64,000 nucleotides of DNA, taken from assembly GCA_011050465.1 (NCBI GenBank), contig DRFQ01000009.1, positions 192,334-256,333 on the forward strand. Direction: 5' to 3'. This DNA is from Candidatus Nealsonbacteria bacterium. GTDB lineage: Bacteria > Patescibacteriota > Minisyncoccia > Minisyncoccales > RBG-13-36-15. The position numbers and the translations under genes were made by a program. Each line of letters opens with the position of its first letter. Position 1 is the first letter of the stretch. The notes beneath the pieces were generated by a model. The model was given only the letters and a program-made list of their open reading frames with translations. It searched no databases and was not told where the DNA came from. Positions 10,016 to 46,823 of the stretch are shown here, one piece after another.

Positions 10016-10025
10016 TTTATCAAAA

Positions 10026-10768: not shown

Positions 10769-10796
10769 TTCCTTTCTCCTCCGTGCGTGGCTATTT

Positions 10797-11186
10797 CTAA
10801 CGGACCAGGCTAGTTAAAGACTCTACACGTACCAGAATATCTGATGAATGGGAAGGAAAATGAACCATCCCATCTACTTTTTCTATTAACTCTTTCGCTT
10901 GCTCAGGATCATCATGGGTGAAGAATACTACAATTGGCGTATTGAAAGATACTTCTTCTTCTGGGGTTCTTTCTCTGATTTTCGCTATCAAATCTGGAGA
11001 TTGAGAAACAAGAGACGCTTCCAGAACAATAGCGTCATAGACCCAGAGTTCCCTTATTTCAGGAGGAGGAAGCATTTCAATTATTTCTTCGGGTGAATGC
11101 CTAATTTCTACCCTATGTCGTGTGGCCAGTCCTAAAGAGTAATAATGTTTTTGCTCGGAATCGGTTATTCCCATCAGTATTCTCAT
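10797..11186 (-). CDS. hypothetical protein, possibly a degenerate receiver-like alpha/beta fold
   Basis: The start is moved to the ATG at 11186 (MRILMGITD) because the track's TTG start lies inside the SD gaggagg. The fold guess rests only on an alternating beta/alpha pattern. Confidence 0.4.
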   Translation of the reverse strand: MRILMGITDSEQKHYYSLGLATRHRVEIRHSPEEIIEMLPPPEIRELWVYDAIVLEASLVSQSPDLIAKIRERTPEEEVSFNTPIVVFFTHDDPEQAKELIEKVDGMVHFPSHSSDILVRVESLTSLVR

Positions 11187-11326
11187 GTCGTAACCTCCTC
11201 TCTTACTCAATCTCTATTGAATTGACAAGGTGCCGCCTCCTTTGTATCTTATACTTTAATGGGCTTTATTAAAAAAGGCAAGCCGAGATGACAACCCGTG
11301 GGCGATGGACTATGAGTTATAATTTT

Positions 11327-12079: not shown

Positions 12080-12164
12080 AAGGATTAATAGCTTTTATTA
12101 AAAATCAAGGCCTTTTTATTTTACCATAAAAAGGCCGTATCTAAAGACAAAGAATAGACAGATT

Positions 12165-12848
12165 TTAAGCGTGAGATTTAAAGAATCTTGGAGAAATAAG
12201 ATAATTTTTGTTAACCAGGGGTCTTAAAATATGAACTCCTTTAATCGCAGTTAGTTTGTCCAACACGGTATTCATCACCAAATAACTTGCCCAAATGCCT
12301 ATGGTAAAGAAACCACGCTCAATAAAAACTACAGGAATTAAGGCCAACCAAATCTGAGGGGTCAAGCCAAAAGCGTAGAGAAAAATTGTTGAACCGACAG
12401 CGTGGGCAGTAAAAGTAGCACCCAAGCTATTTAAAATTAACCTTTTCTTTCCAAATGTAGCAGCTAAAGGAATTAGCCAAATAAGAGGAAAAAGCCAGGC
12501 TTGTTGGCCAATAGGATGAACTAAAAATAAAATAATGCAAATAGGAAAAATTATAGCCATCTTTTTTCCTTTCATTCCAAAGTAAACGGCCGCCAGCATC
12601 ATCGGCAGAAAACGCATAACAGTCAAGAAATCTAAAGTTTGCTGAGTAATAATTATATTTGCCCCTCTGACGATAAAAGCTGAGAGGGCACCAAAAAACG
12701 GTCCCAAAAACATTCCACCAAGAGGAGCAATAAGTTCAAAAAGAGTAAAGTTTTGGTCTGAACCGATAATCCCGGAAATAGGAATCTGAAAAACAATTAA
12801 ACTTAAAACAATAAAGATGATTAGAAATAAAACTTTCTGTTTAGCCAT
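12165..12848 (-). CDS. polytopic membrane protein (6-7 TM), function unknown
   Basis: 227 aa and hydrophobic throughout. A vague ECF S-component-like appearance only. Confidence 0.55.
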   Translation of the reverse strand: MAKQKVLFLIIFIVLSLIVFQIPISGIIGSDQNFTLFELIAPLGGMFLGPFFGALSAFIVRGANIIITQQTLDFLTVMRFLPMMLAAVYFGMKGKKMAIIFPICIILFLVHPIGQQAWLFPLIWLIPLAATFGKKRLILNSLGATFTAHAVGSTIFLYAFGLTPQIWLALIPVVFIERGFFTIGIWASYLVMNTVLDKLTAIKGVHILRPLVNKNYLISPRFFKSHA

Positions 12849-13148
12849 TTTCTATTAGTTAATAATTAAAAACTCATTTTTATTATATGATAGAGTGTAA
12901 TTTTCGTAAAGGCAATTCGGTGTATCAATTTAGAAACAAAAAGGCGGTTTGGCTTTATGTCACACCGCCTTGATTAATATTTTTCGCCAACGCAATTTGG
13001 GCTACTGCCGCTCCACAGAAACGATGAAGACGGGGTACTACTGATAGGTCGGTCAACTCAGGGTAGGCCGCGCTCAAGGTGGCTGGCCATCGTAAAGGAT
13101 GCTAGAACCGTGCTTCAGAGATTAGATAGATATGTTTGTATTTCAGAC

Positions 13149-13715
13149 TTAAGCTCTGTTTAATTTTTTGTATAACATTCTTGGGTAGCCCATTTCCTTC
13201 TGAATCTCGTATTCAACATTCAAGTTATTCAGAAAATCAGAACAGGCTTTTCTTGTTTTGTCTACACCACCAAAATCCTTTTTTGCTTCAACTTCCATAA
13301 AATCACCCAAATCTTCAATCTCGTCCAAGGTTACCTCAAAATCACCACAATCAAAGTATTTTCGTGTCTTTTTAACAGTAACTTTAAGAATCAATCCAAT
13401 TTTCTTAAAAATTTCCTCAGCAATTTCTGGTTTATCAACAAAGGTTTCGTATTCATCTGTTGACCTTAACCAACCGTCCTCACTAAAATGCAAAAAAGAA
13501 TAATTTAGATGATTTCTGCCTTCTTCATATCTTACCCTTAAATATTCGTCTGGCATATTTTTAGCAAAAAAATCTCTCTGTGGCGGCACAAAGTATTTAT
13601 CAATTTGTTTGCGAGACTTAACAAATTTCCCTACTTCATTTAATCTCTTTTCAATCTTTTCTGGGTTTTTAATTATAACTTGGATTTCAACTTCAACGTT
13701 TTTCATATAATTCAT
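13149..13715 (-). CDS. CYTH-domain protein (CyaB / thiamine-triphosphatase-like)
   Basis: The N-terminal VEVEIQV sits where the ExExK motif would be. LRVRYEEGRNHLNYS and FEVTLDEIEDLGDFMEVEA are typical CYTH strands. Confidence 0.7.
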   Translation of the reverse strand: MNYMKNVEVEIQVIIKNPEKIEKRLNEVGKFVKSRKQIDKYFVPPQRDFFAKNMPDEYLRVRYEEGRNHLNYSFLHFSEDGWLRSTDEYETFVDKPEIAEEIFKKIGLILKVTVKKTRKYFDCGDFEVTLDEIEDLGDFMEVEAKKDFGGVDKTRKACSDFLNNLNVEYEIQKEMGYPRMLYKKLNRA

Positions 13716-13930
13716 CTTACCAAAAAAACCGCCTTCTTGCCCACCTAAATTCGCCGCAGAGGCGAACTTGGGCGGGCTTAGCGATTTTTTAGCTTAGCTT
13801 GGCGGTGGAACGTAATTCGAGCTTGATCTTGGGTAACTTACCCAAACGACAAAGCCCACTGAATCGCTTCACGTTCCTTTTGCGTTAAGCAAAAGTTCTA
13901 AGCGAAATCGAGAGAGTCCACTTTAGCCAC

Positions 13931-14110
13931 CTACTCACTAACACATGTACACAATACTTCCGCTTGCCCACATCCAGCACACTTAGGCATACAATGACGG
14001 TCAGATGGTGGATCACCATGCGTATGGCCGGAATCATGCTGATCCGCATCCTCACCGCAGATTGCACACTTCCAGTTCTCGGCAGGACTATTACATTTTG
14101 CACATTTCAT
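13931..14110 (-). CDS. 59-aa Cys/His-rich metal-binding-type protein
   Basis: Not in the ORF track (below the size cutoff). SD aggag lies 10 nt upstream of the ATG. The peptide is MKCAKCNSPAENWKCAICGEDADQHDSGHTHGDPPSDRHCMPKCAGCGQAEVLCTCVSE. It replaces the implausible 72-aa ORF in another frame. Confidence 0.55.
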   Translation of the reverse strand: MKCAKCNSPAENWKCAICGEDADQHDSGHTHGDPPSDRHCMPKCAGCGQAEVLCTCVSE

Positions 14111-14162
14111 ATTTTTTCATCTCCTTTCTTAATTATCTAATTATCGACCTTTTAATTATAAT

Positions 14163-14366
14163 TTAACATTCTTTATAAATTTTTAAAACTGTTGGGTGGA
14201 GGCTCCGAAACCCAAATTTTTTAATCACATTCTCTTTAGTATCTTTTTTAGCAACGTAAATATAAAACCAACCTCTGTGATTGGTATTCTTTGTTCTTAC
14301 CTCAATCTTTTTCTTCCCGGAGACAAGCAACTCTGCCCAAGGTTGGCTCATTGTGAGACCATTCAT
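14163..14366 (-). pseudogene. ASCH (PUA-like) domain protein, apparently truncated
   Basis: MSQPWAELLVSGKKKIEVRTKNTNHRGWFYIYVAKK matches the N-terminal strands of ASCH domains. The ORF ends after 67 aa, whereas typical ASCH proteins are 100-150 aa. Confidence 0.4.
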
Positions 14367-14498
14367 ATTTTACTATTTTTTCCCCACCCTGCTACTCACT
14401 ATTTTTTAAATCAAAACAGCCCAGCGATATGATTTCCCATATTATCTTGCTTCTCTTTTAAATATAAAACTATCAAATCAATACTTCAATCAAAACTT

Positions 14499-14765
14499 CT
14501 ATTCAGTTTTTCCTAACTTTCCGGTTAATTTGTTATATAACCAGCCGAATTTGTAGATCAAGATGAAGCTAATAACGGCTGCTTCAATTATGCCGGCGAT
14601 TATTCCACCTATACTTAACGAGAAAAAAATGTGCCACTGTTGCATCATTTCGACAGCTCCGGTATACATTCCTAAATTGCCAAGTATTCCCAGTAATAAC
14701 ATAATTAATGCAGAAATGATCGCTGCTGCATATCCTAGTGCCAATGGATTTAATTCTTTATTCAT
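14499..14765 (-). CDS. small two/three-TM membrane protein
   Basis: 88 aa with glycine-rich TM helices (LLLGILGNLGMYTG, IGGIIAGIIEAAVISFILIY). Confidence 0.5.
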   Translation of the reverse strand: MNKELNPLALGYAAAIISALIMLLLGILGNLGMYTGAVEMMQQWHIFFSLSIGGIIAGIIEAAVISFILIYKFGWLYNKLTGKLGKTE

Positions 14766-14997
14766 ATTTTCCGAGATTAAATTATTAAATATAAATACGA
14801 CCTTTTTTTCTTTATTTCATTATACCTCCCTCTCTGCAAAACAAAAATCCCGAGGTCACATACCTCGGGCATGAGGCGGCTCGGTCCCCCTTCGCCAAGA
14901 TTACGGACGGATAAATCCTCCTTCGCTAAAGCTACGGAGGAACAAGTCGGGGCTATTTTAAGCTAAAACCTGTCCCGTAGTAAGCTCTGCTTTACTA

Positions 14998-15070
14998 CCG
15001 GGATGAGACAAATGGGACATTACTTGGGGGTATATTTTGGTGTCTCATTTTGGGTATACCCTACTACAAA
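14998..15070 (-). repeat. modular repeat, copy D (H2 module only)
   Basis: ccgggatgagacaaatgggacat...tatattttggtgtctcattt...taccctactac aligns with the right part of copies A-C. Confidence 0.7.
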
Positions 15071-15078
15071 AACAAAAG

Positions 15079-15102
15079 GCGGTGTGATATTTATCGCACC
15101 GC
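15079..15102 (-). terminator. intrinsic terminator (family T2)
   Basis: gcggtgtgat-attt-atcgcaccgc. On the minus strand it is followed by cttttgttttt. It lies after the stop of 15123-15335. Confidence 0.6.
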
Positions 15103-15122
15103 TTAGGTTATTGATGTCTGGG

Positions 15123-15335
15123 TTATGCAAGCCTTATTGATTTATCCTTGAAAAGAGTTACTGTGTCATCTACTGGTATATAGCCTCCTCGCATATTAGC
15201 GGTCGGCTGGAGCGGCCTAACGGGGATACATTCCTTTTCCTCAATAATATTAATTGGCCCTGGTAACCTTTGAAATACTCTCCAGTCAGGTGGCCATTTA
15301 AACCAAGCGTTTTCAGCGAGTTCTCTTGCCTTCAT
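15123..15335 (-). CDS. hypothetical protein
   Basis: 70-aa ORF, last gene of a tightly spaced trio (15579-16031, 15361-15564, 15123-15335). Confidence 0.45.
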   Translation of the reverse strand: MKARELAENAWFKWPPDWRVFQRLPGPINIIEEKECIPVRPLQPTANMRGGYIPVDDTVTLFKDKSIRLA

Positions 15336-15360
15336 TCTTTCACCCTTTCTTCTTGGAAAT

Positions 15361-15564
15361 CTACTCGGTATCTTCTAATTTCCATTTAGTTTCACCACCT
15401 CGTCTTTCAAGGCAGTAAACTTGGCAGAGAGCTCCTAATGATTGGGCGACTCCATTAACGTGTAGCCCTGTCCTTTTTGCAATTTGTCTTGTTGTGGCTG
15501 TTCCGCCTAATTCTTTTAGAGCTGCTAATATCTCTTTTTGGCGTTTTTTGAGAGATGCCATCAT
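15361..15564 (-). CDS. small winged-helix DNA-binding protein
   Basis: KEILAALKELGGTATTRQIAKRTGLHVNGVAQSLGAL...RRGGETKWKL reads as an HTH plus a wing. SD aaggagg. Confidence 0.6.
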   Translation of the reverse strand: MMASLKKRQKEILAALKELGGTATTRQIAKRTGLHVNGVAQSLGALCQVYCLERRGGETKWKLEDTE

Positions 15565-15578
15565 TCTTCCTCCTTCTT

Positions 15579-16031
15579 TTAATTCTCTGGGAAATGGAAT
15601 TGTGATAAGTCTGGACTCCAGTAAGAAATAATTAACACGGGGTGATTATTCCCGATAGAATTCAACACTTCCCTGGTTTCGTTTTCCCATCTGGAATCGC
15701 TTGGTTCTAAATCCTCTGAATCAAGACAGGTCGTAGCTTTATCTTTACTTAAAAAAAGAGCAATTATCGGAGTGGTCTTTCCTCCATAAAACGCAATATT
15801 TACCTCTTCTGGTTTTTGGGGTGACCTTTCAATTCCTCTTGGATGATCTTCATCATATAGGATAATTCCACAAGGAGTAATGCCCACATATCTACCATTC
15901 TTAAGTCTTTGTCCGACAGAAATCTTACTTTCCCCTCTTAATACGATTTTCTCAATGATAGGGATACCTTCTTCATCTTTTTCGTCTTTCACCAAATAGA
16001 CAGATGTAGTTGTTACTGCAAAGAACTCCAT
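15579..16031 (-). CDS. hypothetical protein
   Basis: 150-aa ORF with SD aaggaggg 5 nt upstream of the ATG. No recognisable family. Confidence 0.55.
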   Translation of the reverse strand: MEFFAVTTTSVYLVKDEKDEEGIPIIEKIVLRGESKISVGQRLKNGRYVGITPCGIILYDEDHPRGIERSPQKPEEVNIAFYGGKTTPIIALFLSKDKATTCLDSEDLEPSDSRWENETREVLNSIGNNHPVLIISYWSPDLSQFHFPEN

Positions 16032-16107
16032 TTTTACCCTCCTTTTTTGTACACTAGGACTATCTTTAGTTTAATCAGATTTGATAAAAAATCAACCCTT
16101 ATCAAAA

Positions 16108-16127
16108 AAACCGCCTTCTTGGCGATT
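16108..16127 (-). terminator. hairpin of family T1
   Basis: aaaccgccttcttggcgattt with a T-run on the minus strand, downstream of 16221-16529. Confidence 0.5.
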
Positions 16128-16220
16128 TTTAATACTAGGGTCATCTAGCGGATGAGATTAGAACCTGTTTAGTAGGTTAAAAACAAAAAAGCCCCGAAGG
16201 GCTTAACGGTTGTTTCTTTT

Positions 16221-16529
16221 TTATTCTTTTATTGGTGCGAGGATGGCATTAAGAACATTGCCTGGAAAATGGCAGTTCGGACAATCGTGGGGGATAATAT
16301 TGCTTGAAAAGCAACCCTCTCTACGGCTTGCAGTAAATACAAACTGGCAATAAGGGCATTGCCTCTGTAAGATACTTAAGGCTACACCGCCAGGATGATA
16401 TTCGCCGCCAGTATAAGCATCAACTGCTGCGCTTTCGTTTAGAATGGTAAAATCTTTTTTCAACAAATCGTTCAATTCTGCTCTGTTTTTCGGCAGTTCG
16501 GGTATCGCAGGTTTCACGCTATCCAGCAT
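16221..16529 (-). CDS. hypothetical protein with C-terminal zinc-ribbon-like CxxC pairs
   Basis: CPYCQF ... CPNCHF motifs. SD gggaggtg upstream of the ATG. Confidence 0.55.
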   Translation of the reverse strand: MLDSVKPAIPELPKNRAELNDLLKKDFTILNESAAVDAYTGGEYHPGGVALSILQRQCPYCQFVFTASRREGCFSSNIIPHDCPNCHFPGNVLNAILAPIKE

Positions 16530-16648
16530 TTATGCACCTCCCTTAATGACTAAATGAACTAAGTTAATTTTATATAAATTAATTTATTTGTCAAGTAAAA
16601 AAGCTCCAAAAAGGGCTAAAAAACAAATATTTATTTAGAAACAAAAAG

Positions 16649-16670
16649 GCCTCTGGCTAGTGCCTGAGGC
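16649..16670 (-). terminator. intrinsic terminator (family T3)
   Basis: gcctctggc-tagt-gcctgaggc (one mismatch). The minus strand continues cctttttgtttctaaa. A related copy lies at 23003-23026. Confidence 0.5.
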
Positions 16671-16690
16671 TGAAAAAAGATAATGAAGGT

Positions 16691-16933
16691 TTATTTTAGA
16701 TACGAGAGTATTTGAATGGCAGTGATACCAAACGCTATCATCCCAAAAGAAAATGTTATATCTTGTCTTCGAGTTTCTATCCAGCAGATAATCACTACTA
16801 TATATAAGATTCCTATTAAAGCGAAATTCGAAAAATCAAGATTGAGGGCAAGATTAGCTGTTGCCAAGATAATTGTCAAAAGAAAGAGTATAAATGCAAT
16901 AAACGGAAACGGCTTTCTTCTTTCTCGTATCAT
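16691..16933 (-). CDS. small three-TM membrane protein
   Basis: The start is moved to the ATG at 16933 (MIRERRKPF) because the track's TTG start lies inside the SD ggaggtgg. Confidence 0.5.
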   Translation of the reverse strand: MIRERRKPFPFIAFILFLLTIILATANLALNLDFSNFALIGILYIVVIICWIETRRQDITFSFGMIAFGITAIQILSYLK

Positions 16934-17110
16934 TTCCACCTCCAAGTTGGGAAAGGGCTATATTAGAGGATGAGGTTGATTGGCAAATAGATAATTGGGG
17001 GTGTGGCCCTCCTTTCTTTCACCTCCCAACCCCATCCGTAGTTAATTTAACTTAGATTAGAATTGTTGTCAAAACAAAAACCCCTACTACTAAGTAGGGT
17101 GTTATACTTT

Positions 17111-17315
17111 GCTGGCATCCTCGGTCTAGAACCCACAATTTAAGAGGAAATTCGGAGGTTTGAGGCGTGTCTCATTGACGCGTCTCGGTCAGGGTGTCCC
17201 GCCCTCTAAGCAAATAGATAAACATACAGCATAGAGGGCCGGGATGAGACAAATGAGACACTATTTAAGGGTATATTTTGGTGTCTCATTTCGGGCGTTC
17301 TATACCCTGCTACTT
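17111..17315 (-). repeat. modular repeat, copy A (full: L + H1 + H2 modules)
   Basis: ctggcatcctcggtctagaacc...gtgtctcattgacgcgtctcggtc, then hairpin cccgccctcta...tagagggccggg (17198-17243), then aaatgagacac-n19-gtgtctcattt (17251-17291). Confidence 0.8.
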
Positions 17316-17327
17316 AATATTTCTTAA

Positions 17328-17348
17328 AAATCGCCTTCTTGGCGATTT
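17328..17348 (-). terminator. hairpin of family T1 (perfect 8-bp stem)
   Basis: aaatcgcc-ttctt-ggcgattt. Confidence 0.5.
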
Positions 17349-17656
17349 CTTTTCATAACTGGGAGTCGTGGTACAGAACTAGCCGGTTCGTACCTACACC
17401 GTATCATATGGTACTGGGGTGGACGATTTTCCTTGTCCGTCCGAAGTCCCGCAAGGCGGGACGAAGAAGGAGAACAACAAATTGGGTGGAACTTATCCTC
17501 TATCCTCAATTAACTTTATTACAATCTCAAGAATTATTATCCCCTACCTAATATTTTTGGTAAATCCTTCAATTTAACCGTGATGCTTCACGAAATGTGA
17601 AATCGTGCTCAAGAATTTCTGTCAAAGAACTCTTCGATTCCCCCTGAGGAAAACCA

Positions 17657-18256
17657 TTAGAATGCTCTTTTACACTTTGGGCATACAAAATGTGCTACAA
17701 ACCAATGGCCATTAGTGCGCGTATAGTCAGGAATCAGCTCTAAAGCCATTTTTGTTTTACAATGAGAACATCGAAACCCTTTTGAAAAATCAATATCCTG
17801 TTGTAATTTTGCCGCATCCGCTCTACCTTCTTTTACCTCAAGCTTGTAAGAATTAATATTTTTTGTAATATCCACTTTTGTTAATAACGCATGGATCTTG
17901 CTTAATATTTCTCGCGGTGAATAAAAGCCCTTTACCGTATAATCGTTTGCCCCTAATTCGAGACCTTTTTGAATATTTTTTTGTCCTCCCAATACTGAAA
18001 AAATAATAACAGGGATATCCTTTATTGCTGCGTCAGCACGAATATTTTTTAAGACTTCAAATCCATGCAGTTTCGGCAAAATCAAATCCAATAAAACCAG
18101 GTCTGGTCTTTTTGATTTTACTAACTGCCATCCACTCTCCCCATCTTCAGCTTCTAAAACCTCGTACCCATCATTTTCAAGAACGTCTCGATAAATACGC
18201 CGGAATCCTGCTTCGTCTTCAATAATTAAAATGGTCCCCTTGTCCTTTTTATTCAT
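17657..18256 (-). CDS. response regulator: receiver domain fused to a C-terminal zinc ribbon
   Basis: ILIIEDE...DLVLLDLILPKLHG...ANDYTVKG gives the receiver D/D/K pattern. The C-terminus has CSHCKTK...CPKCKRAF. Confidence 0.8.
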   Translation of the reverse strand: MNKKDKGTILIIEDEAGFRRIYRDVLENDGYEVLEAEDGESGWQLVKSKRPDLVLLDLILPKLHGFEVLKNIRADAAIKDIPVIIFSVLGGQKNIQKGLELGANDYTVKGFYSPREILSKIHALLTKVDITKNINSYKLEVKEGRADAAKLQQDIDFSKGFRCSHCKTKMALELIPDYTRTNGHWFVAHFVCPKCKRAF

Positions 18257-18290
18257 ATGTTTCTTTATGCATAACTTTGCAATTCAGTTA

Positions 18291-18674
18291 TCAAGTGTTT
18301 ATTAAATTTCTTAACCTCTCAACCAATTCTCGTGGCGTTGTTTTATCTTTAACTATGTACTCTTTGGCGCCAGCGTTTAGAGCCTCTTTAATGTCTAATT
18401 CTTGCCCTAATGCGCTCAAAATAATAACTTGTAAAGTATCTAGCTTATTGTTGGCTCTTATTTTTTTTAAAACCTCGACTCCAGTCATGTCAGGCATCAC
18501 CACATCAAGCAGAACAAAATCATAGTCTCCAGAATTAACTTTTTCCAAACCGTCTCTCCCATTCTCCGCTTCATCAACTATAAAGCCATCTGCCAAAAGT
18601 CTCTCCTTATACATCTTTCTTATAAAAGAATCGTCGTCAATAAGGAGTATTCTTTTCTTTATTTTTTTAATCAT
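18291..18674 (-). CDS. single-domain response regulator (CheY-like)
   Basis: ILLIDDD, FVLLDVVMPDMTG and AKEYIVKD. It overlaps the kinase stop by 4 nt (ATGA). Confidence 0.85.
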   Translation of the reverse strand: MIKKIKKRILLIDDDSFIRKMYKERLLADGFIVDEAENGRDGLEKVNSGDYDFVLLDVVMPDMTGVEVLKKIRANNKLDTLQVIILSALGQELDIKEALNAGAKEYIVKDKTTPRELVERLRNLINT

Positions 18675-20776
18675 TTTTTCTTGAAATAAATATAAAATGT
18701 AGTTCCTTCCCCAGGCTTTGTATCAAAGTTTATTTTTCCACCCTGAAGATCGATGAACTGTTTTGCAAGGTAGAGTCCTAAACCCGCACCGGCAGCTTTC
18801 ACTTTCCCGCCTAAAACCTTCTCTTTGGCAAAGAGCGTTTTTTGATTCTCTGGTGTTATACCCTCACCTTCATCCTGAACTGACATCACAACATCTTTTC
18901 GATCCTTATGCAAGCTTATTGTAACAGAGCTGGACGGCTTAGTAAATCCAATCGCATTATGTATTATATTCCTAATAATCTCTACTGATTTGTCAAAATC
19001 TGCCAAAATATAAAAATTTTCCTCGGGATACTCTTTTTTAATTGTAACGCCTTTTTCTTTCGCCATTTTCATAAGAGGAGACAAAGCAATCTCAAGTATT
19101 TTCCTGATTTGTACATTTTTTATATCAGCTGTCAGCATTCCTCGTTCAAGGCGCGAGACATTAAGAAGATCATCAATAAGTTTTGAGTTTCTGTCAGCAA
19201 TAGCAAACATATCGTTTAAATACTCTTTTTGCTTTTTGTTCAAAGGACCAGTAAGACCACTAAGCATATTATCAATAAACCCTTTTATCTGCGCAGAAGG
19301 AGTTTTTAGTTGATGGGAAGCCAATGAAACAAACTCAGTTTTGGCGCGATCAATTTCTTTTTCCTTGGTAATATCCCTCTCAATGCCGACAAAAAACATT
19401 ACATTGTTTTCTTGATCAAGCACCGGAGCAATATGCGTTTCAGCATCATATATCTCTCCATTTTTTCTTTTATTACTAAGCTGATCGATAAAATGCTCCT
19501 TTTTAACCTTAAGAGTATTCCACATTTTCTTATAAAATTCCGGCTTCATCCGCTTCCCCCACAAAGACGGCCTTTGACCAATCATTTCTTTCTTTGAATA
19601 ACCAGTTATTTTCTCAGCTGCCTTGTTAGCATATAAAATAAAACCGTCGATATCGGTGATAATAATATGGTCGGAAGCATGTTCTACGGCCAGCTGAAAT
19701 TTCTTCAAATCTTTAGTAAGGCGATCAGCAATCCTTTCAGCTCGTACTTGTGTTCGGGTAAAAGAATACAAAACAAAGAACAACAAGACGCTGAAAGAAA
19801 CTCCTCCTACGGCAACCGCAAGCGGTGTATATTTTTCAGTGCCAATCAAAGTGGCAAAGCTCGGAAGGTCATGAAAAGAAAGCTTCCAATCCCTGCCCCC
19901 GACATTAATTATTCGCTCCGCATTAAATTCCGGCACAACCTTATGTTCAAAATCTTTACGAACAAAAAGTATCGACCCTGATTCATCCACCGCTTCAACG
20001 TGCAAGTTTTGGGATTCTGGAAATACGCTCAAAAGCGATTCAAAAAAATCACTAGCCCGAAACACAGCAAGCACAAAACCATTAAGCGCTTCTCTCCTTT
20101 CTTGGACTGTTTTTATAGATATGCCCTCTTCATACAATGGAAGGAATATAAGAAATCCTGCCTGCTCTTCTTTTTCCTGCACTAATCGGATAGGCGCTGT
20201 AGTAACAGGAGTATTTGTGTCTCTCGCTTCTTCAAGAGCCATTTTCCTCGCTGGATTTGAAAAAAGATCAAAACCAAAAGCCTCCTCGTTTCCCTTGAAA
20301 GGCTCAATGTATGTAACTACAAAGTACTCTTCGCGCTCTCCTTCAGGATAAATGATAAAATCAGGATAGCCTTCGGATATCATACCTTCTATATCATCCC
20401 GCACATCTTGCATGAAGGTCTCTTTATCTTCTAGGGGCACTCGAGCGATAAATTCAAGCGCCTGGATTCCCGGGAATTTTTCCTCAATCGACAAAGAGTT
20501 TACGTAGGCACGAAAATCATTGCGGTCAACTTTCTGGCTTGCTGCAAAAAGACCGCGCATGCCATACAGTATATTTATATATTTATCAATACTTTCTTGA
20601 ATATGGATATGGGTCTCTGTAACTATCGCAATAAATTTCTCCTCCTTTTCCAGATTCAAAATTTCTTTTGTTTTATACCAGGCAAAACCAGTCAATATGA
20701 AGAAAATCATAAAAAGCAGCAACGGAAGAAATAGTTTTTTCAAACTGATTTTAAATTGTGGAGTTTTCTTCATCAT
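18671..20776 (-). CDS. sensor histidine kinase with extracytoplasmic CHASE domain, PAS, HisKA and HATPase_c
   Basis: N-terminal TM helix. CHASE-like block (YFVVTYIEPFKGNEEAFGFDLFSNPARKMALEEARDTNTPVTTAPIRLVQ), then a second TM helix and a PAS domain (IIITDIDGFILYANKAAEKITGYSKKEMIG). H-box EFVSLASHQLKTP and G-box GAGLGLYLAK. Confidence 0.9.
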   Translation of the reverse strand: MMKKTPQFKISLKKLFLPLLLFMIFFILTGFAWYKTKEILNLEKEEKFIAIVTETHIHIQESIDKYINILYGMRGLFAASQKVDRNDFRAYVNSLSIEEKFPGIQALEFIARVPLEDKETFMQDVRDDIEGMISEGYPDFIIYPEGEREEYFVVTYIEPFKGNEEAFGFDLFSNPARKMALEEARDTNTPVTTAPIRLVQEKEEQAGFLIFLPLYEEGISIKTVQERREALNGFVLAVFRASDFFESLLSVFPESQNLHVEAVDESGSILFVRKDFEHKVVPEFNAERIINVGGRDWKLSFHDLPSFATLIGTEKYTPLAVAVGGVSFSVLLFFVLYSFTRTQVRAERIADRLTKDLKKFQLAVEHASDHIIITDIDGFILYANKAAEKITGYSKKEMIGQRPSLWGKRMKPEFYKKMWNTLKVKKEHFIDQLSNKRKNGEIYDAETHIAPVLDQENNVMFFVGIERDITKEKEIDRAKTEFVSLASHQLKTPSAQIKGFIDNMLSGLTGPLNKKQKEYLNDMFAIADRNSKLIDDLLNVSRLERGMLTADIKNVQIRKILEIALSPLMKMAKEKGVTIKKEYPEENFYILADFDKSVEIIRNIIHNAIGFTKPSSSVTISLHKDRKDVVMSVQDEGEGITPENQKTLFAKEKVLGGKVKAAGAGLGLYLAKQFIDLQGGKINFDTKPGEGTTFYIYFKKK

Positions 20777-20965
20777 TCCAATTGTTTTTCTGAATCTTCA
20801 AAAATATTGATAAAAGTGTGGCTTATAGTAATTTTATTATACCACTGCCTAGGAATTTTGTTGATCCGCTGCTACCTATATTCAACCCCGAAATGCAACA
20901 CTTGAGGATTGAATTCATGGATATTAAAAAAATCGCCTTTTAGACGATTTTAAAATTCGTAAATA

Positions 20966-21079
20966 ACGCGTCTCGGTCGGGGTGTCCCGCCCTCTAAGCA
21001 AATAGATAAACATACAGCATAGAGGACCGGGATGAGACAAATGGGACACTATTTAAGGGTATATTTTGGTGTCTCATTT
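20966..21079 (-). repeat. modular repeat, copy B (H1 + H2)
   Basis: acgcgtctcggtcggggtgtcccgccctctaagcaaatagataaacatacagcatagaggaccgggatgagacaaatgggacac...gtgtctcattt. Near-identical to copies A and C. Confidence 0.8.
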
Positions 21080-21141
21080 TTAGCTTATCCTACTGATGCC
21101 TGAAGGGATATTTCGCTATTTCAGAAATTTGTAGCCAACTA

Positions 21142-22455
21142 TCAACATTTCTGTATAAATTCTTTTTGTAGTCTCCTTTTCCTAAAAATACTCAATGTTT
21201 TAATATGTTGCTGTGCTTCTTCTGATTGTCGAATCAAATTTATTTCTAGATCAATGACCTTTGGGTTTACCTCTAGCGCTGTTTCATTAAAACCTATAAG
21301 TTTTAGACTATCTAATGTTTTTACTCTTGATAGAGCGACATATCCCATTCCTCTTTCGAATGCTTTACTAAGATCAATTTCGGCAGCATCTAGGGTCATC
21401 CCTTGGCTTTTATGAACGGTAATCGCCCAGGCAAGCCGAAGAGGTATTTGACTAATTTCAGCTTTTACCACATCGTCCTCTTTGATTGTCCAACTCGCAT
21501 GGGTAGCGATGATTTTTTTACCGGAAAATATTTTCACTATAGGATATTCATTATTATCAAACCCAACTACCTTGCCAAGTGTGCCGTTAACATACCCTTT
21601 GTCAACATTATTTTTCAAAAACATAACCTTAGCGCCTTTCTTAAGCGTTAGTTCCTCAGACGCCAAACAGTTTCTTTTCAATAACTCTACAAGTTTAGGC
21701 TCTCCTTTCAAATGCATATCATATACAAACTCTTTTCCTTCTATTTTATCTAACTGAAGATGATTTATGGCATCAACGTCTATATTATGAGTATATAGCT
21801 TGGTCGGTTTAATGACAGATGATAGTTCTTTGTTTTCTCTACCCGACAATAACTGAAATGATTCATCTCTTATTTTATTGTTCCTTATGTCAAATAGTAT
21901 TTTTGATAGTCTTGGATCTACATGTCGGTGCTGTTCTTGTAGATAACAGACTTTCATGTCCATATTTCGCCACACCTCGGACTCTGTAACAAATTTTGCC
22001 CCATCACCTCCGCCTTTCTGCACAGGGGGTAATTGAAAAAAATCCCCCGAACAGATTATTTGCATGTTTCCGAATGGTGTCAAATTATTTTTAAATGCCT
22101 GACATATATTATTTATAAGATCAAACTGGAAAGAATGAAGCATAGATATTTCATCAATAATAATAATATTAGTATTCCGGAATCTCTTTTGCAAATAGCT
22201 CCTCTTCAATAAATTTCGTATATTGCTGTCTGTTAGTTTTTCTTTAATGCCTAGCCCAGACCATGAATGAATGGTAACCCCATCCATATGTGTTGCGGCT
22301 ATTCCAGTTGATGCTGTTACAGCTACCTTTACTTTATTTTTTTTAAGATACGAAATATATTTGTTCAATAAAAAAGTCTTGCCGCTTCCAGCCTGACCCG
22401 TTAGATAAACATTATACCCTAATTTTAATATATCTAATGCTTCTTTTTGTGTCAT
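21142..22455 (-). CDS. PIF1/RecD-family (SF1B) DNA helicase
   Basis: Walker A GQAGSGKTF, Walker B IIIDEISML, GDFFQLPPV, and the C-terminal WAITVHKSQGMTLD. Confidence 0.85.
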   Translation of the reverse strand: MTQKEALDILKLGYNVYLTGQAGSGKTFLLNKYISYLKKNKVKVAVTASTGIAATHMDGVTIHSWSGLGIKEKLTDSNIRNLLKRSYLQKRFRNTNIIIIDEISMLHSFQFDLINNICQAFKNNLTPFGNMQIICSGDFFQLPPVQKGGGDGAKFVTESEVWRNMDMKVCYLQEQHRHVDPRLSKILFDIRNNKIRDESFQLLSGRENKELSSVIKPTKLYTHNIDVDAINHLQLDKIEGKEFVYDMHLKGEPKLVELLKRNCLASEELTLKKGAKVMFLKNNVDKGYVNGTLGKVVGFDNNEYPIVKIFSGKKIIATHASWTIKEDDVVKAEISQIPLRLAWAITVHKSQGMTLDAAEIDLSKAFERGMGYVALSRVKTLDSLKLIGFNETALEVNPKVIDLEINLIRQSEEAQQHIKTLSIFRKRRLQKEFIQKC

Positions 22456-22506
22456 ATTTTATAATTTTACTCTACCAAAAAATCACCCTCCCTTAAAGGT
22501 GAAGAA

Positions 22507-22620
22507 CGACGTCTCGGTCGGGGTGTCCCGCCCTCTAAGCAAATAGATAAACATACAGCATAGAGGGCCGGGATGAGACGAATGAGACACTATTTAAGGG
22601 TATATTCTGGTGTCTCATTT
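22507..22620 (-). repeat. modular repeat, copy C (H1 + H2)
   Basis: cgacgtctcggtcggggtgtcccgccctctaagc...catagagggccgggatgagacgaatgagacac...gtgtctcattt. Confidence 0.8.
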
Positions 22621-22721
22621 CTAGGGAATTATTGGCTGTTTAAAAAGAAAAGAGCCACCGTAGTTGAAGAGTGTTTGTGCTCTTTTCATCGGGTGGCTTG
22701 GGCCGAAGCCCTTAATGATGG

Positions 22722-22934
22722 CTACGATTTAGTGGACTCCTGAGACAGTCCCAAGTAGAGACTGATTGGCCAGACAGCGGCGCATATCGCTCCTGCCACG
22801 GCAAGGATAATCCAGTGCCATCTCGAAGGTGTTGAACCATCCTCTAATTTCAGCCCTACGGCCGAAATGTACCCCATGGCAACGGAGAAGTATATGGCCG
22901 CGATAACCGCGTAGCCTAAAATGAGCCAATGCAT
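22722..22934 (-). CDS. small two-TM membrane protein
   Basis: SD aaggaggg 8 nt upstream of the ATG. Hydrophobic helices. By eye the patch is GC-rich. Preferred over the overlapping 85-aa ORF in another frame. Confidence 0.5.
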   Translation of the reverse strand: MHWLILGYAVIAAIYFSVAMGYISAVGLKLEDGSTPSRWHWIILAVAGAICAAVWPISLYLGLSQESTKS

Positions 22935-23002
22935 TATGCTGCCCTCCTTTTACCTTTATTATACACCCACATTTCCGTTTTGTCAAGCCCGCAAAACAAA
23001 AG

Positions 23003-23026
23003 AGCCTCTAGCTGGTGCCTGAGGCT
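23003..23026 (-). terminator. intrinsic terminator (family T3)
   Basis: agcctctagc-tggt-gcctgaggct. The minus strand continues cttttgttttg. It lies after the stop of 23053-23298. Confidence 0.5.
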
Positions 23027-23052
23027 ATGAATGATAAAGAACTATATCAAAA

Positions 23053-23298
23053 TTAACTTTCTTTCTCTTTTTCAAGAAGAACACGAAGATATATTGTCAT
23101 TCGCCACAGAGAGAACAAAGTCATAAAAGATGATATCGCAAGAATCCCATAAGAGGCAGTAAGGTTTCTTGTTTCCGTTGTGCCAGTTACCATCAAAATT
23201 GCCATGACAAGAAAAAACAAGAAAACGGCCGCCAAGATAACATATATCCTTATATAGAATTTCGCTCTTTCTTTCGAGCTATCGACTATCTCCGTCAT
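23053..23298 (-). CDS. small two-TM membrane protein
   Basis: The start is moved to the ATG at 23298 (MTEIVDSS) because the track's GTG start lies inside the SD gggaggtg. Confidence 0.5.
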   Translation of the reverse strand: MTEIVDSSKERAKFYIRIYVILAAVFLFFLVMAILMVTGTTETRNLTASYGILAISSFMTLFSLWRMTIYLRVLLEKEKES

Positions 23299-23422
23299 AT
23301 TCTTCACCTCCCGAGTTGTATAAGAACTATTTGATACTTAACCCTATTACATCCTTAGTTATTCGTCAATGAAAAACCGCCTTCTCCTCCATAGGCGGAC
23401 AGGTTGGCGATTGATTTATACC

Positions 23423-23446
23423 GGGCTTGGAGTCTCACTGCTCGCT
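23423..23446. repeat. 24-nt direct repeat, copy 1 (gggcttggaRtctcactgctcgct)
   Basis: Identical to 23883-23906 except for one base. Together the two copies flank the GIY-YIG gene. Confidence 0.75.
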
Positions 23447-23492
23447 CGATTAAAATAATTGTCCTTCGATTTAACTCAGGACAACCCTGAGT

Positions 23493-23756
23493 TTACCGAA
23501 GGGTTGGTTTGCCGAACTTAATAAGATTTAATTTCTTTTCTCTTCTCCATCCCTTAATTTCAGACTCTCGATGCATAGCCTCTTTTAATGTTTCAAATTC
23601 TTCTGAATATCTTAAAACAACTGGTCTGTGAATCTTAGTGTAATGAGCTCCCCATTTCGATTCGTTATGCTGTTTTACACGTTTTTCTAAGCTATTAGTA
23701 CAACCGACATAGAAAGAATAATCGGAACATTCAAGGATGTAAACGTAAAATACCAT
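23493..23756 (-). CDS. GIY-YIG nuclease family protein (small stand-alone type)
   Basis: MVFYVYILECSDYSFYVGCTNSLEKRVKQHN...EIKGW carries the GIY/YVG motifs, the conserved R and the conserved E. The start is taken at the internal ATG; the track's 25-aa extension runs through repeat sequence. Confidence 0.85.
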   Translation of the reverse strand: MVFYVYILECSDYSFYVGCTNSLEKRVKQHNESKWGAHYTKIHRPVVLRYSEEFETLKEAMHRESEIKGWRREKKLNLIKFGKPTLR

Positions 23757-23877
23757 ACTATTTGTCACTTCGTCGTTCCTCTCTTCGAGCCTGAGGCTCT
23801 CAGAGCCGAACGGCCTCAGTGCCTTCTTCAATATTATTTATAGTGCCAAAGGCCCTGATGAATGAAGTGAAGAAGGG

Positions 23878-23906
23878 CTGCGGGGCTTGGAATCTCACTG
23901 CTCGCT
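23878..23906. repeat. copy of the tRNA-Gln 3' end (14 nt) fused to the 24-nt direct repeat, copy 2
   Basis: ctgcggggcttgga at 23878-23891 is identical to 26409-26422, the 3' end of the intact tRNA-Gln. 23883-23906 repeats 23423-23446. Confidence 0.75.
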
Positions 23907-24124
23907 TCGCTGCGCTTTAGACACCCACGGGTTCTAAGTATTACCCCAAATTCGCTTCGCTAGAATTTCGGGGACCCCAAACGTTTCTGCCTCAACGGCA
24001 GAAGCCTGTTTTCCTACACGGGGAGATACCCAATCTCCCCGACCCCCTCTGTGCGGTTCTCATCCAATCCCCTACGCATTAATTCAAACCAGTAACACCC
24101 ATAAAGGGTGTTCTGTTTTCAATA

Positions 24125-24208
24125 CTGGCATCCTCGGTCTAGAACCTGTGTTTTGAAGGGAAATTAGGGGGTTTGAGGCGTGTCTCATTGACGCGTCTCG
24201 GTCGGGGG
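24125..24208 (-). repeat. modular repeat, copy E (L module only, truncated at cgtctcggtcgggg)
   Basis: ctggcatcctcggtctagaacc...ggtttgaggcgtgtctcattgacgcgtctcggtcgggg aligns with 17113-17193 of copy A and then breaks off. Confidence 0.75.
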
Positions 24209-24239
24209 GTAATCTTTTTTTTATTAGAATTTTTCTATC

Positions 24240-25046
24240 TTACGCGAGCTCTTGTTGGATATCTTGCAACTGTTTCTTAACCTTTATGTCTTTTTCCTGC
24301 CTTTGAAGTGTCTCAATTTTCTGATCAAGTATGAGCTCTATTGATAATTTAATTGGTGCAAAATATCTCAAACATTCTTCCTCGGTCAACTCATGAACAC
24401 CTTTGCTTAAAATTGAATAAATACTTTTCATCTCCACAAGTTGACTTGGTAAAAATGCTTTAAGTGTTTCCACTTTATCCATCATCCTTTGTTGTTTAAA
24501 ATCAGCTTCAGCAACTCCGATAGAGACTGCATTTTTTGTATACGTCTCGAAAATGAGGTTTTCGAAGATCTTACGTAAATACACAAAAGACCCCGCACCA
24601 GCACCGTGTGCAACCAAACCAATTGCTTTTTTCAGATTCTTTAAGTCTTCGGTTAGAAGTACTTTGTCGTATTTCTTACCAATCTCGGAGAACTGTAAAT
24701 CCGCAAGCGACGGGTATTGCCCAACCTTAAAAATGATTTCTCTATTTTTATAAACAATGAATCTCAGAATATCTTCTGATTTTCTCTTGCAAGTGAGAGT
24801 TATTAGATAAAATCCAATGTTTACATGTTCACGGATATCACTAGCCCATATATCCCAAGTATCAATTTCATCCATATTTATATTGTATGTAGTTTCCGAA
24901 CTATTCTTGGCACTATACGCGTCTACGTCACCATTGAATGTATTTTGTTCGAGTTGCGCTAAAACCACTTCTTCATACAAAGGAGTCTCAAAATAGAAAT
25001 TATGTTTACTTATTATATTCTCTTCAGTTGTAGTTTCTTCTGCCAT
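24240..25046 (-). CDS. hypothetical protein, C-terminal half DUF4145-like (tentative)
   Basis: 268-aa ORF. AIGLVAHGAGAGSFVYLRKIFENLI...LPSQLVEMKSIYSILSKGVHELTEEE resembles the helical DUF4145 pattern seen in restriction/Abi-type proteins (from memory). The N-terminal half is unrecognised. Confidence 0.45.
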   Translation of the reverse strand: MAEETTTEENIISKHNFYFETPLYEEVVLAQLEQNTFNGDVDAYSAKNSSETTYNINMDEIDTWDIWASDIREHVNIGFYLITLTCKRKSEDILRFIVYKNREIIFKVGQYPSLADLQFSEIGKKYDKVLLTEDLKNLKKAIGLVAHGAGAGSFVYLRKIFENLIFETYTKNAVSIGVAEADFKQQRMMDKVETLKAFLPSQLVEMKSIYSILSKGVHELTEEECLRYFAPIKLSIELILDQKIETLQRQEKDIKVKKQLQDIQQELA

Positions 25047-44789: not shown

Positions 44790-44918
<129 letters not shown>

Positions 44919-44940: not shown

Positions 44941-45750
44941 TCAGAAGAAGAGGGGTAATATTGAGAAGTTTCCTAAGGAAACAGCTAGTCGCACTATTTT
45001 ATTGATTGGTGAATCAAGTTCTAAAGCTGCTTTTAGATTTCCTGTTTGAGAATCAAATACAAATAAAACTCCAGGTTTTTCACCCCGATGACTGCGTCCA
45101 GTGACATAGACTATGTCAGAGGCGTCAACCCAGAGGCTTTCACCAAAGGTACCAAAATGTGGAACGAAATCTATATGGAATTGATAAAAAGGATCCTCAG
45201 ATAAATTAAATTTACGAATTTCATAACTTTCCCTATTTACAGCAGTAATTTTGACCGGAAAGCTTGTTAGCCATAGCCCATATGGTTTCCCTCTGGTTAC
45301 TCCATATGGAAAAATAAAAATTTCATTTCCTGTATCATAAGAGTAAATTGCCCCTGAAAAAATTTTCTTTGAAAGAGATTCGTCTGTCGTTTCAATTAAA
45401 GAAATCATATCAGATGGCAGTTCGTCTAAATACAATCTTTCTTCCTCATTATCCAAAATCCATCTTTTTGTGGAATTAAATTCTGAATCAGATACTTTAA
45501 TATGCCTTAAAATTTTCCAGTTTTTTGTGTCTATCAGCCAGATGGTTGGTTGAAAAGTACTCTTCCCATGATAAACGCAAAAGCAGTCTGAAGAGTAGTG
45601 CACACCACTATCAAAAACATAGAGTATATCTCCCTTTTTCGCTAAAGCTTCTGGACTACTACCTACCCCAATATTCATAATTGCTAAAAAGTAGGAACCG
45701 AAGATTAGAAAAAGAATTACTGGTAAAGCTATTAAGAACTTTTTTATCAT
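44941..45750 (-). CDS. hypothetical membrane-anchored protein inserted in the dcw cluster
   Basis: 269-aa ORF with an N-terminal TM helix and a beta-rich body. No recognisable family. Confidence 0.6.
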   Translation of the reverse strand: MIKKFLIALPVILFLIFGSYFLAIMNIGVGSSPEALAKKGDILYVFDSGVHYSSDCFCVYHGKSTFQPTIWLIDTKNWKILRHIKVSDSEFNSTKRWILDNEEERLYLDELPSDMISLIETTDESLSKKIFSGAIYSYDTGNEIFIFPYGVTRGKPYGLWLTSFPVKITAVNRESYEIRKFNLSEDPFYQFHIDFVPHFGTFGESLWVDASDIVYVTGRSHRGEKPGVLFVFDSQTGNLKAALELDSPINKIVRLAVSLGNFSILPLFF

Positions 45751-45767: not shown

Positions 45768-46823
45768 CTATATTTTTACTGCTGCTCTTAATTTAGCCGA
45801 CCTTGATCGAGGATTGACTCGAATTTCTTCAGGGCTTGGCCTGACCGGCTTTTTTGTTAAAATTCTAAGCCTCGATACTATTCGCCTTTGGCGAAAGTAC
45901 GGGGCAGGCAATCCCGCCTTCGATAAATCTTCGGCGGACAAGTCGGCGGGCAAGCCCTCCTTAGCTTTCTCAAATTTTGTTTCGCAAACTTTGAGAGGAT
46001 TAGCCATTTTTTTGAAGAAATTTTTTACAATCCTATCTTCCAAAGAATGGAAAGAAATTATAACTAATCTTCCGCCTTTCCTTATGCTTTCCAGAGCCTG
46101 AGGAAGGGTTCTTTCTAGATTATTTAATTCGTCATTAACGGCGATCCTTAAGGCCTGAAAAGTTCTAGTGGCAAAATGGATACGGTTCCTCAAATATCTC
46201 TTTGGCACAACATATTTTATGGTTTCTGCCAGCTGGAAGGTGGTTTTAATAGGCCTTATGTTTCGTTTTTCAATAATACTTTCGGCAATAATCCGGGCAT
46301 ATCTTTCTTCTCCATAGTCCTTTAAGATTTTCTCTATTGCATCTTTTGACCAAAAATTGAGAATCTTCTCAGCAGTTAACCCCGTTAGAGGTTTGTTCTC
46401 TTTGTGCTTCCGCCAAGCCCCGTTGACCTTTAACGGGGTTAAAGGATTCTGAGGATTGTATCTCATGTCCAGGGGTTCATTTCTCAAAAAGCTGAATCCA
46501 CGACCCGACTCTTCCAAATGCCAGCTGGACATTCCTAAATCAAACAAAATTCCAGAGATTGGCCTAATTTTTTTAATGATCTCTTTTAGGTTGATATAGG
46601 AGTCTCGAACTAAAGTTAATCGTTTCCTAATTCCTGTGGCTTTCAACTTTTTATATAATTCCTGGTCTATTTCAATCCCTAATACTTTTCCTCTGGGTCC
46701 ATTTTTCTCCAATATGGCTAAACTGTGTCCTCCTTGGCCAAACGTACAATCAATAAAATTTTCGTTTGATTTTGGGTCAAGATATTCAAGAATTTCTTTC
46801 TGGAGAACAGGGATATGAATCAT
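45768..46823 (-). CDS. rsmH: 16S rRNA (cytosine1402-N4)-methyltransferase
   Basis: HIPVL, DCTFGQGGHS, FDLGMSSWHLE, GRGFSF, RTFQALRIAVNDEL, ISFHSLEDRIVK and [10 protein letters not shown]. Carries two extra in-frame segments. Confidence 0.9.
   Translation of the reverse strand: MIHIPVLQKEILEYLDPKSNENFIDCTFGQGGHSLAILEKNGPRGKVLGIEIDQELYKKLKATGIRKRLTLVRDSYINLKEIIKKIRPISGILFDLGMSSWHLEESGRGFSFLRNEPLDMRYNPQNPLTPLKVNGAWRKHKENKPLTGLTAEKILNFWSKDAIEKILKDYGEERYARIIAESIIEKRNIRPIKTTFQLAETIKYVVPKRYLRNRIHFATRTFQALRIAVNDELNNLERTLPQALESIRKGGRLVIISFHSLEDRIVKNFFKKMANPLKVCETKFEKAKEGLPADLSAEDLSKAGLPAPYFRQRRIVSRLRILTKKPVRPSPEEIRVNPRSRSAKLRAAVKI
45872..45956. repeat. about 84-nt GC-rich repeat inserted in frame in rsmH (C-terminal region)
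   Basis: Present in rsmH but absent from the duplicated remnant at 44794-44914. Contains sub-palindromes ttcgcctttggcgaa and ggcaggcaatcccgcc. Encodes LPADLSAEDLSKAGLPAPYFRQRRIVSR. Confidence 0.7.
46376..46442. repeat. palindromic element, ccccgttagag family, inserted in frame in rsmH
   Basis: 17-bp inverted repeat ttaaccccgttagaggt / acctttaacggggttaa (one mismatch). Shares ccccgttagagRtttgttctctttg with 5119-5178. Encodes about NPLTPLKVNGAWRKHKENKPLTG. Confidence 0.7.

Follow-up and report, generated by a model that had tools for sequence, protein, structure and literature searches.

The stretch of DNA analysed here, called the window, comprises 64 kb from Candidatus Nealsonbacteria, a member of the Candidate Phyla Radiation (CPR/Patescibacteria), and all coordinates given without a locus name are window positions. 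The gene under study, rsmH, occupies 45768-46823 on the minus strand and encodes the 16S rRNA m4C1402 methyltransferase in an intact reading frame of 351 residues. It is identified by TIGR00006 (E=6e-89), by a match to PF01795 and by matches to PDB entries 1M6Y, 1WG8 and 3TKA; the protein is 100% identical to one labelled Candidatus Nealsonbacteria by NCBI, and mraZ lies directly upstream of the gene. Within rsmH, the arms 46376-46392 (TTAACCCCGTTAGAGGT) and 46426-46442 (ACCTTTAACGGGGTTAA) form a 17-bp pairing with one mismatch. A second palindrome, located in an intergenic region at 5119-5178, has a perfect 15-bp stem. Both contain the 25-mer CCCCGTTAGAGRTTTGTTCTCTTTG, whose only two occurrences in the window are at 5120-5144 and 46380-46404, and 100 dinucleotide-preserving shuffles of the window gave no match to it, even with up to three mismatches allowed. 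The folding stability of both hairpins is well above that of shuffled sequence (z -4.6 and -5.7, plus strand). The first-pass annotation of this DNA had described the palindrome, its sibling and the shared core, and had proposed that one short element exists both as noncoding DNA and as translated sequence inside an essential gene. The pairing, the perfect intergenic stem and the non-random nature of the core all stand, and the dual existence of the element is supported by the 25-mer together with the empty alleles described below.

The exact boundaries of the element emerge from the comparison of filled and empty rsmH alleles. The MITE-like element (for miniature inverted-repeat transposable element) is 59 nt long, spans 46380-46438 on the minus strand and lies in frame in rsmH. 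A profile built from 38 copies of the same 59-nt subfamily at other loci recovers it with nhmmer at E=1.4e-17. It is bounded by 13-bp terminal inverted repeats beginning CCCCGTTAGAG, one at 46380-46392 (CCCCGTTAGAGGT) and the other at 46426-46438 (ACCTTTAACGGGG), with a single mismatch between the partners: a T at 46430, where other filled alleles have C. On either side lies a copy of TTAA (46376-46379 and 46439-46442), which is present only once in the empty alleles P0002, P0008 and P0051. The two closest of these, P0002 and P0008, read AAT CCT TTAA CTG CCG, and the filled site in the window reads AATCCT-TTAA-[CCCCGTTAAAGG...CCTCTAACGGGG]-TTAA-CTGCTG. The 59-nt element and the 4-bp duplication together amount to 63 nt, that is, 21 codons gained by rsmH. 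The arms as annotated at first had been drawn slightly too wide: their pairing is real, whereas the outer TTAA of each arm is the duplicated target and falls outside the element.

Related genomes retain the empty site. The insert is present in just 5 of the best 120 RsmH homologues, and in the orthologue alignment the 21 residues are absent from the closest alleles, P0002 and P0008, so that the extra residues are not a property of all related RsmH proteins. The most direct comparison is between a filled contig (L126) and an empty one (L127) from different samples, which match at 99.87-100% identity along 2.5 kb, a 63-bp indel being their sole difference; this indel is a presence/absence polymorphism inside one population. 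The element thus has terminal inverted repeats, a duplication of constant length, a small size without a transposase gene, dispersed copies and intact empty sites, the features by which MITEs are recognised. The rsmH palindrome is very probably a non-autonomous transposable element of this kind, inserted in frame. The earlier interpretation of the palindrome holds, and the target duplication, the exact boundaries and the wide family described below go beyond it.

On the coding (minus) strand, the element reads CC CCG TTA AAG ... CTA ACG GGG, corresponding to P-L-K-V-N-G-A-W-R-K-H-K-E-N-K-P-L-T-G. The inserted residues 128-148 (LTPLKVNGAWRKHKENKPLTG) stand between PLDMRYNPQNP and LTAEKILN with the frame intact, the position at which a translated copy had been predicted between the PLDMR block and LTAEKILN. 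The alignment to the Thermotoga maritima MraW structure 1M6Y is interrupted precisely at residues 127/149. In an AlphaFold model computed from 119 sequences, the predicted local distance difference test score (pLDDT) falls below 50 at residues 128-147 and exceeds 90 in blocks from residue 150 onward. The model places the insert in the linker that joins the PLDMRY block of the methyltransferase fold to the first helix of the helical domain, where it is most likely translated as a flexible, hydrophilic loop. Two junction-spanning tryptic peptides, YNPQNPLTPLK and ENKPLTGLTAEK, are predicted from the window protein. Five insert peptides gave zero matches in Pfam and NCBIfam. A 30-residue segment of the window protein had no match at E<=0.001 among 1.84 billion representative proteins, and a 44-residue natural tandem peptide gave three word candidates in the protein database, none of which scored; both results say nothing on abundance.

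The intergenic copy belongs to the same 59-nt subfamily (5120-5177, plus strand, 58 nt; nhmmer E=1.5e-13). It sits 11 nt past the stop codon of a 96-residue open reading frame (ORF) on the minus strand (5190-5480), and an identical copy with the same flanks is found in SDBV01076179.1 (L152). Besides this copy and the one in rsmH, nhmmer and a six-frame motif scan found no further copy in the window. A metagenome scan with the shared 25-mer returned 56 contigs representing 29 distinct insertion sites. Of these sites, 15 are deep in ORFs and 5 are close to ORF ends; an exact duplication flanks 23. Many other genes contain the interior type seen in rsmH (..GCCCCGTTGACC), flanked by different duplications, and in its other phase this interior reads NPVRGQRGLVEAQRKQTSNGV. 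Two identical 59-nt copies lie 4 kb apart in different ORFs of contig L146 (8713 and 12857; =L163), flanked by TTTA and TAAA, respectively, and a tandem pair of elements sharing TGAA resides inside one 527-residue ORF of L149 (1048 and 1111; =L157). Judged from sequence, both arrangements are signs of recent element activity. In the rsmH of P0012 (L123:328-388 and 507-567), two copies of one sub-subfamily occupy different sites and are read in different phases, PVRGQRGLVERQRKQTSNG and TPLEVNGARQKHKENKPLTG.

The 59-nt subfamily is one part of a much wider family. Scanning one genome per species for two termini 25-50 nt apart identified at least 120 loci, and the counts that follow are among the matches listed. 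By label, 60 are from Patescibacteria, 23 from Omnitrophota, 22 from Planctomycetota, 4 from Nitrospirota and 11 from others, namely Elusimicrobia, Cloacimonadota, Ratteibacteria, Desulfobacterales, two contigs of one Methanosarcinales metagenome-assembled genome (MAG) and unclassified sequences. Several loci are on long contigs, such as a 1.7-Mb Nitrospirota and a 160-kb Planctomycetaceae contig. The elements measure 47-71 nt, their interiors are variable and fall into subfamilies, and relatives reach 281 nt. An exact 4-bp direct repeat flanks 79 of 127 copies, against a chance expectation of ~0.5. A 4-bp duplication model reaches 75-86% agreement per position over these copies, and models of 3, 5 or 6 bp fit far worse; the target logo is YNNR, mostly TNNA. 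A duplication of only 2 bp, combined with a terminus longer by one base, was considered and set aside, as the target-site duplications TCAG, TTAG and CTTA would force mismatched termini. Positions 12-13 of the termini are variable and yet complementary in 123 and 115 of the 127 copies, respectively.

The lengths of the elements obey a reading-frame rule. Among 121 distinct elements, 86 have a length of the form 3n+2 (86:18:17 for length modulo three; chi-square p=1.4e-17), and the excess is spread across nine length classes (47, 50, ... 71). Because 4 bp are added to a length of 3n+2, the element and its duplication usually make up a multiple of three. The terminus can be read as P-L-E..L-T-G (TPLE..LTG) in one phase and P-V-R..S-N-G in another, and the third phase contains the stops TAG and TAA. 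The interiors have on average 2.94 of 4 frames free of stops, compared with 2.49 +/- 0.09 after shuffling, and none of 500 shuffles was as high. About a third of the copies (38/124) are embedded in long ORFs by 40 codons or more, 37 of these 38 with a length of 3n+2, and many more are within a few codons of an ORF end. Copies are found in both orientations and in many unrelated genes, with variable flanking duplications. The hosts identified through Pfam include DnaE (DNA polymerase III alpha), LigA (NAD-dependent DNA ligase), RecD, GltB (glutamate synthase), TsaD and Sua5, as well as a class II aminoacyl-tRNA synthetase, YchF, ComEC, dihydroorotate dehydrogenase and GcvT.

Searches of existing collections did not retrieve the family. 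At the gathering threshold, Rfam reported only 3 tRNAs in the window, and at E<=1 it placed nothing on the elements of nine element-bearing loci. In the literature, no description of the family was found under palindromic, in-frame or MITE terms combined with CPR or Omnitrophota, and the exact terminus string appeared only in an unrelated paper. Within the libraries searched (Rfam, Pfam, NCBIfam and the literature), the family is apparently undescribed. IMG/VR yielded one match (L129:555-610) in 2.9 million viral contigs; phages are therefore not obvious carriers of the element.

Some members of the family depart from the simple hairpin. Subfamilies of 62-68 nt (L005, L016, L022, L044, L050, L070, L079 and others) place two hairpins atop the terminal stem, giving a three-way junction. 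In a set picked by hand, and hence biased, most base pairs of the first hairpin show compensatory changes, with both partners altered in 7-10 of 21 sequences. A hammerhead-like ribozyme was rejected for these subfamilies, the junction strands being too short and Rfam giving no match. Longer noncoding relatives (L138:2742-2870, L145:435-564, L153:13755-13865 and L182:7133-7413) measure 111-130 nt, with one nested composite of 281 nt; they have the termini CCCCGTTAGAAGTC and 4-bp duplications and show no 3n+2 length bias. The only archaeal label among the matches listed is that of the Methanosarcinales MAG (JAIWAR01), in which L019 and L094 show the same 49-nt element with its flanks, in reverse complement, at two contig ends. 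These may represent one assembly-breaking repeat or a mis-binned contig.

At rsmH itself, the same site recurs. All copies share the TTAA target and the orientation in at least six lineages; the filled alleles lie dispersed across the RsmH tree, each with an empty allele as its closest neighbour. When the window is compared with L180, identity is 63-64% over the 300-nt rsmH flanks and 97% over the interior of the insert, and the inserts of rsmH resemble copies in unrelated genes just as closely as they resemble one another. Taken together, these sequence comparisons make it more likely that rsmH acquired the element several times from a shared pool than that it did so in one ancient event. The constant orientation follows from the host gene, because the opposite orientation would create an in-frame TGA at this codon phase. 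The loop also appears to be a permissive site, since a different double-hairpin repeat has been inserted two codons away in other lineages. This other insert, 54 nt long (TRAQNYFVLGRAHKICAP; L186:1370-1430, in the rsmH of P0005 and also in P0010 and P0055), stands two codons upstream of the same loop and consists of two hairpins, GAGCACAAAAT-T-ATTTTGTGCTC and GAGCACATAAAATATGTGCTC, in what looks like an unrelated palindromic repeat putatively translated in the same linker.

Other explanations for these observations have to be weighed. The element might have entered rsmH once, after which the filled allele spread among related lineages by homologous recombination or gene conversion. This would fit the shared site and orientation in at least six lineages, and the conserved flanking codons (PLDMRY and LTAEK) would provide short stretches of homology. 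We consider it unlikely: the flanks of filled alleles are just 61-77% identical in DNA up to the insert, which makes them a poor substrate, the same subfamily reaches many other genes, and the explanation bears on recurrence at a single site and not on the nature of the element. Very unlikely, in our judgement, is an ancient insertion or ancestral loop in the RsmH of the Parcubacteria ancestor, inherited vertically and lost precisely many times by an element that is no longer mobile. The common TTAA and orientation would be expected from such an origin, and the P0015 insert has strongly diverged, with 60-73% identity to the others. The fixed orientation is, however, accounted for by the TGA stop in the reverse orientation, and insert divergence largely does not track the host gene, as interiors up to 97% identical sit between gene flanks of 63-64%. 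The closeness of rsmH inserts to copies from unrelated genes, the identical copies at separate sites of contig L146, and the empty and filled alleles at ~100% flank identity likewise argue against vertical descent.

A different kind of explanation holds that the hairpin is a functional nucleic-acid structure, either a regulatory element or terminator or an intervening sequence excised from the RNA, kept for that role and not as translated selfish DNA. The very stable folding of both copies, the compensatory changes in the two internal hairpins of the 62-68-nt subfamilies and the position of some copies just past stop codons, the intergenic copy of the window included, are consistent with a role of this sort, which we nevertheless rate as highly improbable. 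The elements have no Rfam match, lie in either orientation across numerous unrelated genes, have varied flanking duplications, and include no conserved internal hairpin in the 59-nt type of the window, while the bias towards multiples of three and the avoidance of stops would be expected only if the copies are translated. Removal at the RNA level is further disfavoured, as we know of no mRNA splicing of such a kind in bacteria. Finally, although all sequences are metagenome assemblies, the chance of an assembly or binning artefact is negligible, given that the identical filled RsmH protein was assembled on 9 contigs of several independent projects and that at least 8 separate assemblies supply filled alleles, all of them with intact reading frames.

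The reading that we prefer, an in-frame MITE at rsmH belonging to a dispersed, multi-phylum family, has several points weighing against it. First, the search pattern fixes 11 terminal bases, so that the conservation of termini across phyla arises partly by construction, and the phylum labels are those of the MAG submitters themselves. Second, the intergenic copy is flanked by TTTA and TCTG and has no intact duplication; it is an older or damaged sibling. Third, translation of the insert is argued from frame statistics, and the recurrent occupation of one rsmH site could stem partly from recombination in place of independent transposition. Fourth, 1.3 Mb of loci yielded neither an autonomous element nor a transposase that carries these termini, and the scans of public collections covered elements of up to 600 nt. 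A search of all loci for long-range terminus pairs with matching duplications returned just noncoding relatives, 96-281 nt long and including one nested pair, and an all-against-all BLAST of 706 neighbouring ORFs disclosed no recurrent protein family, the largest cluster having 8 ORFs in 6 loci.

The termini, the duplication, the empty sites, the dispersal and the frame statistics are directly visible in the data; a mobilising enzyme and cut-and-paste chemistry are what we infer, as no such transposase was found. In the mechanism that we propose, a DDE-type transposase acting in trans would recognise the CCCCGTTAGAG termini, make 4-bp staggered cuts at YNNR targets and join the element, and gap repair would then create the duplication. 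With a length of 3n+2 plus 4 bp, and with two of three phases per strand free of stops at the termini, many genic insertions would keep the frame. Selection would filter these insertions by frame, orientation and structural tolerance, with those in tolerant surface loops surviving, and at the level of subfamilies it may have favoured 3n+2 lengths in gene-dense genomes. Seamless excision in the style of piggyBac would, as a speculation, fit the clean empty sites. A broader proposal, which we advance with considerable reserve, is that of a multi-phylum family of 'coding-competent' MITEs, whose 3n+2, stop-free subfamilies have been selected to multiply in gene-dense genomes (CPR, Omnitrophota and Planctomycetota). 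Such elements would insert at YNNR, possibly excise seamlessly, form reversible loops of 17-25 residues in essential proteins and spread between phyla that share a habitat.

The surroundings of the element contain other repeats. Relative to solved RsmH structures, the window protein has a second insertion at residues 273-316 (45870-46010). Its segment AKEGLPAPYFRRRRIVSG is patchily common to P0004, P0009 and P0109, a nested 14-residue ADLSAEDLSKAGLP in the window protein is flanked by GLP repeats, and siblings of the DNA at 45911-45946 occur at positions 14914, 48414 and 53053; this insertion is probably another short translated repeat family. The last 99 nt of rsmH (45772-45870) are duplicated 978 nt downstream at 44794-44892 with 97% identity. 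The two copies flank an ORF of 269 residues on the minus strand (44941-45750) with a membrane-like N-terminal segment. In the relatives L124, L127 and L128, an ftsL-like ORF of ~117 residues directly follows rsmH, and for this reason the 269-residue gene looks to have been inserted into the 3' end of rsmH, the duplication keeping rsmH intact. Elsewhere, the region 8000-25000 is dense in families of direct repeats: D2 and D4 (69-114 nt, 3-4 copies), D8 (86 nt), and D7, D9 and D11 (23-28 nt, 3-5 copies at a spacing of a few kb).

The rsmH element appears to be the entry point to a large, multi-phylum and unreported family of in-frame MITEs. Selfish DNA in frame within protein genes has so far been treated largely as a peculiarity of Rickettsia; the same behaviour is now seen in a defined family across Patescibacteria, Omnitrophota, Planctomycetota, Nitrospirota and others, with dnaE, ligA, rsmH and tsaD among its hosts. 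If confirmed, the family would account for part of the many lineage-specific insertions in CPR proteins, supply natural presence/absence pairs for studying loop tolerance in essential enzymes, serve as a marker of horizontal exchange among co-occurring uncultivated lineages and imply a transposase of very broad host range. Inserts of this type can also mislead the alignment, phylogeny and structure prediction of MAG-derived proteins.

Several known classes of short palindromic DNA were compared with the family. Repetitive extragenic palindromes and bacterial interspersed mosaic elements (REP/BIME), which depend on REP-associated tyrosine transposases (RAYT), are likewise short, abundant and hairpin-forming. 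They were rejected, because REPs lie outside genes, lack a duplication and have a GTAG-type motif at the 5' end; the present elements show none of these traits. Integron attC sites resemble the elements in being imperfect palindromes (50-140 bp) with GTTRRR / YYYAAC boxes in some of the same phyla. Their box order is the reverse of that found here (GTTAGAG at the 5' side and CTCTAAC at the 3' side, compared with 5'-RYYYAAC...GTTRRRY-3' in attC), and the outer pairs of the present elements are CCCC/GGGG; the copies are also solitary, with no cassette arrays, and lie inside conserved genes with variable 4-bp duplications. A palindrome-associated element of the IS200/IS605 type was rejected as well, the flanking 4-mers being both varied and duplicated.

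The ends of IS1380 and the related eukaryotic piggyBac elements begin with CC/CCC, the piggyBac terminal repeat being CCCTAGAAAGATA and its duplication TTAA. The present family shares CC-starting ends (CCCC...GGGG) and, with 4 bp, a duplication within the 4-5 bp range of that group; by analogy, these two features offer a lead towards IS1380/piggyBac-like transposases. Unlike piggyBac, its target is YNNR and not strictly TTAA, and the loci examined yielded no IS1380-like gene between such termini. Transposases of piggyBac and IS1380-like elements have been paired (PMC5718144), and for IS1247, a member of the IS1380 family, repeats of 16/13 bp and a duplication of 5 bp are reported (PMC3281130).

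The closest parallels are prokaryotic MITEs and the Rickettsia palindromic elements (RPEs). Like Correia, ERIC and Coxiella QMITE1 (PMC10969869, PMC11602168, PMC5896051), the present elements are noncoding and dispersed, with terminal repeats, a duplication and occasional in-frame fusions, and in size they rank with the smallest MITEs. Their behaviour resembles that of the occasional intragenic MITEs reviewed in PMC10969869. In a census of 183,232 genomes, ~90% of MITEs were intergenic, and the phyla of the present family go unmentioned (PMC11602168). In contrast to ordinary MITEs, about a third to half of the present copies lie inside ORFs, and nine length classes obey the 3n+2 rule. The RPEs (Ogata et al., summarised in PMC10969869) are short palindromes inserted in frame in housekeeping genes. 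The likeness to the present family is considerable: both are palindromic, occur in intergenic regions and in frame in unrelated housekeeping genes, are apparently translated as surface segments and have had no transposase identified. By sequence, the present elements are not RPEs, the host being Candidatus Nealsonbacteria, the size 47-71 nt and the peptides without a match in NCBIfam or Pfam, which we take to be the libraries that hold RPE models. RPEs measure ~100-150 bp and are confined to Rickettsia, whereas the present family reaches at least eight phylum-level groups and is set apart from RPEs by sharp 13-bp terminal repeats, a 4-bp duplication and a length rule.

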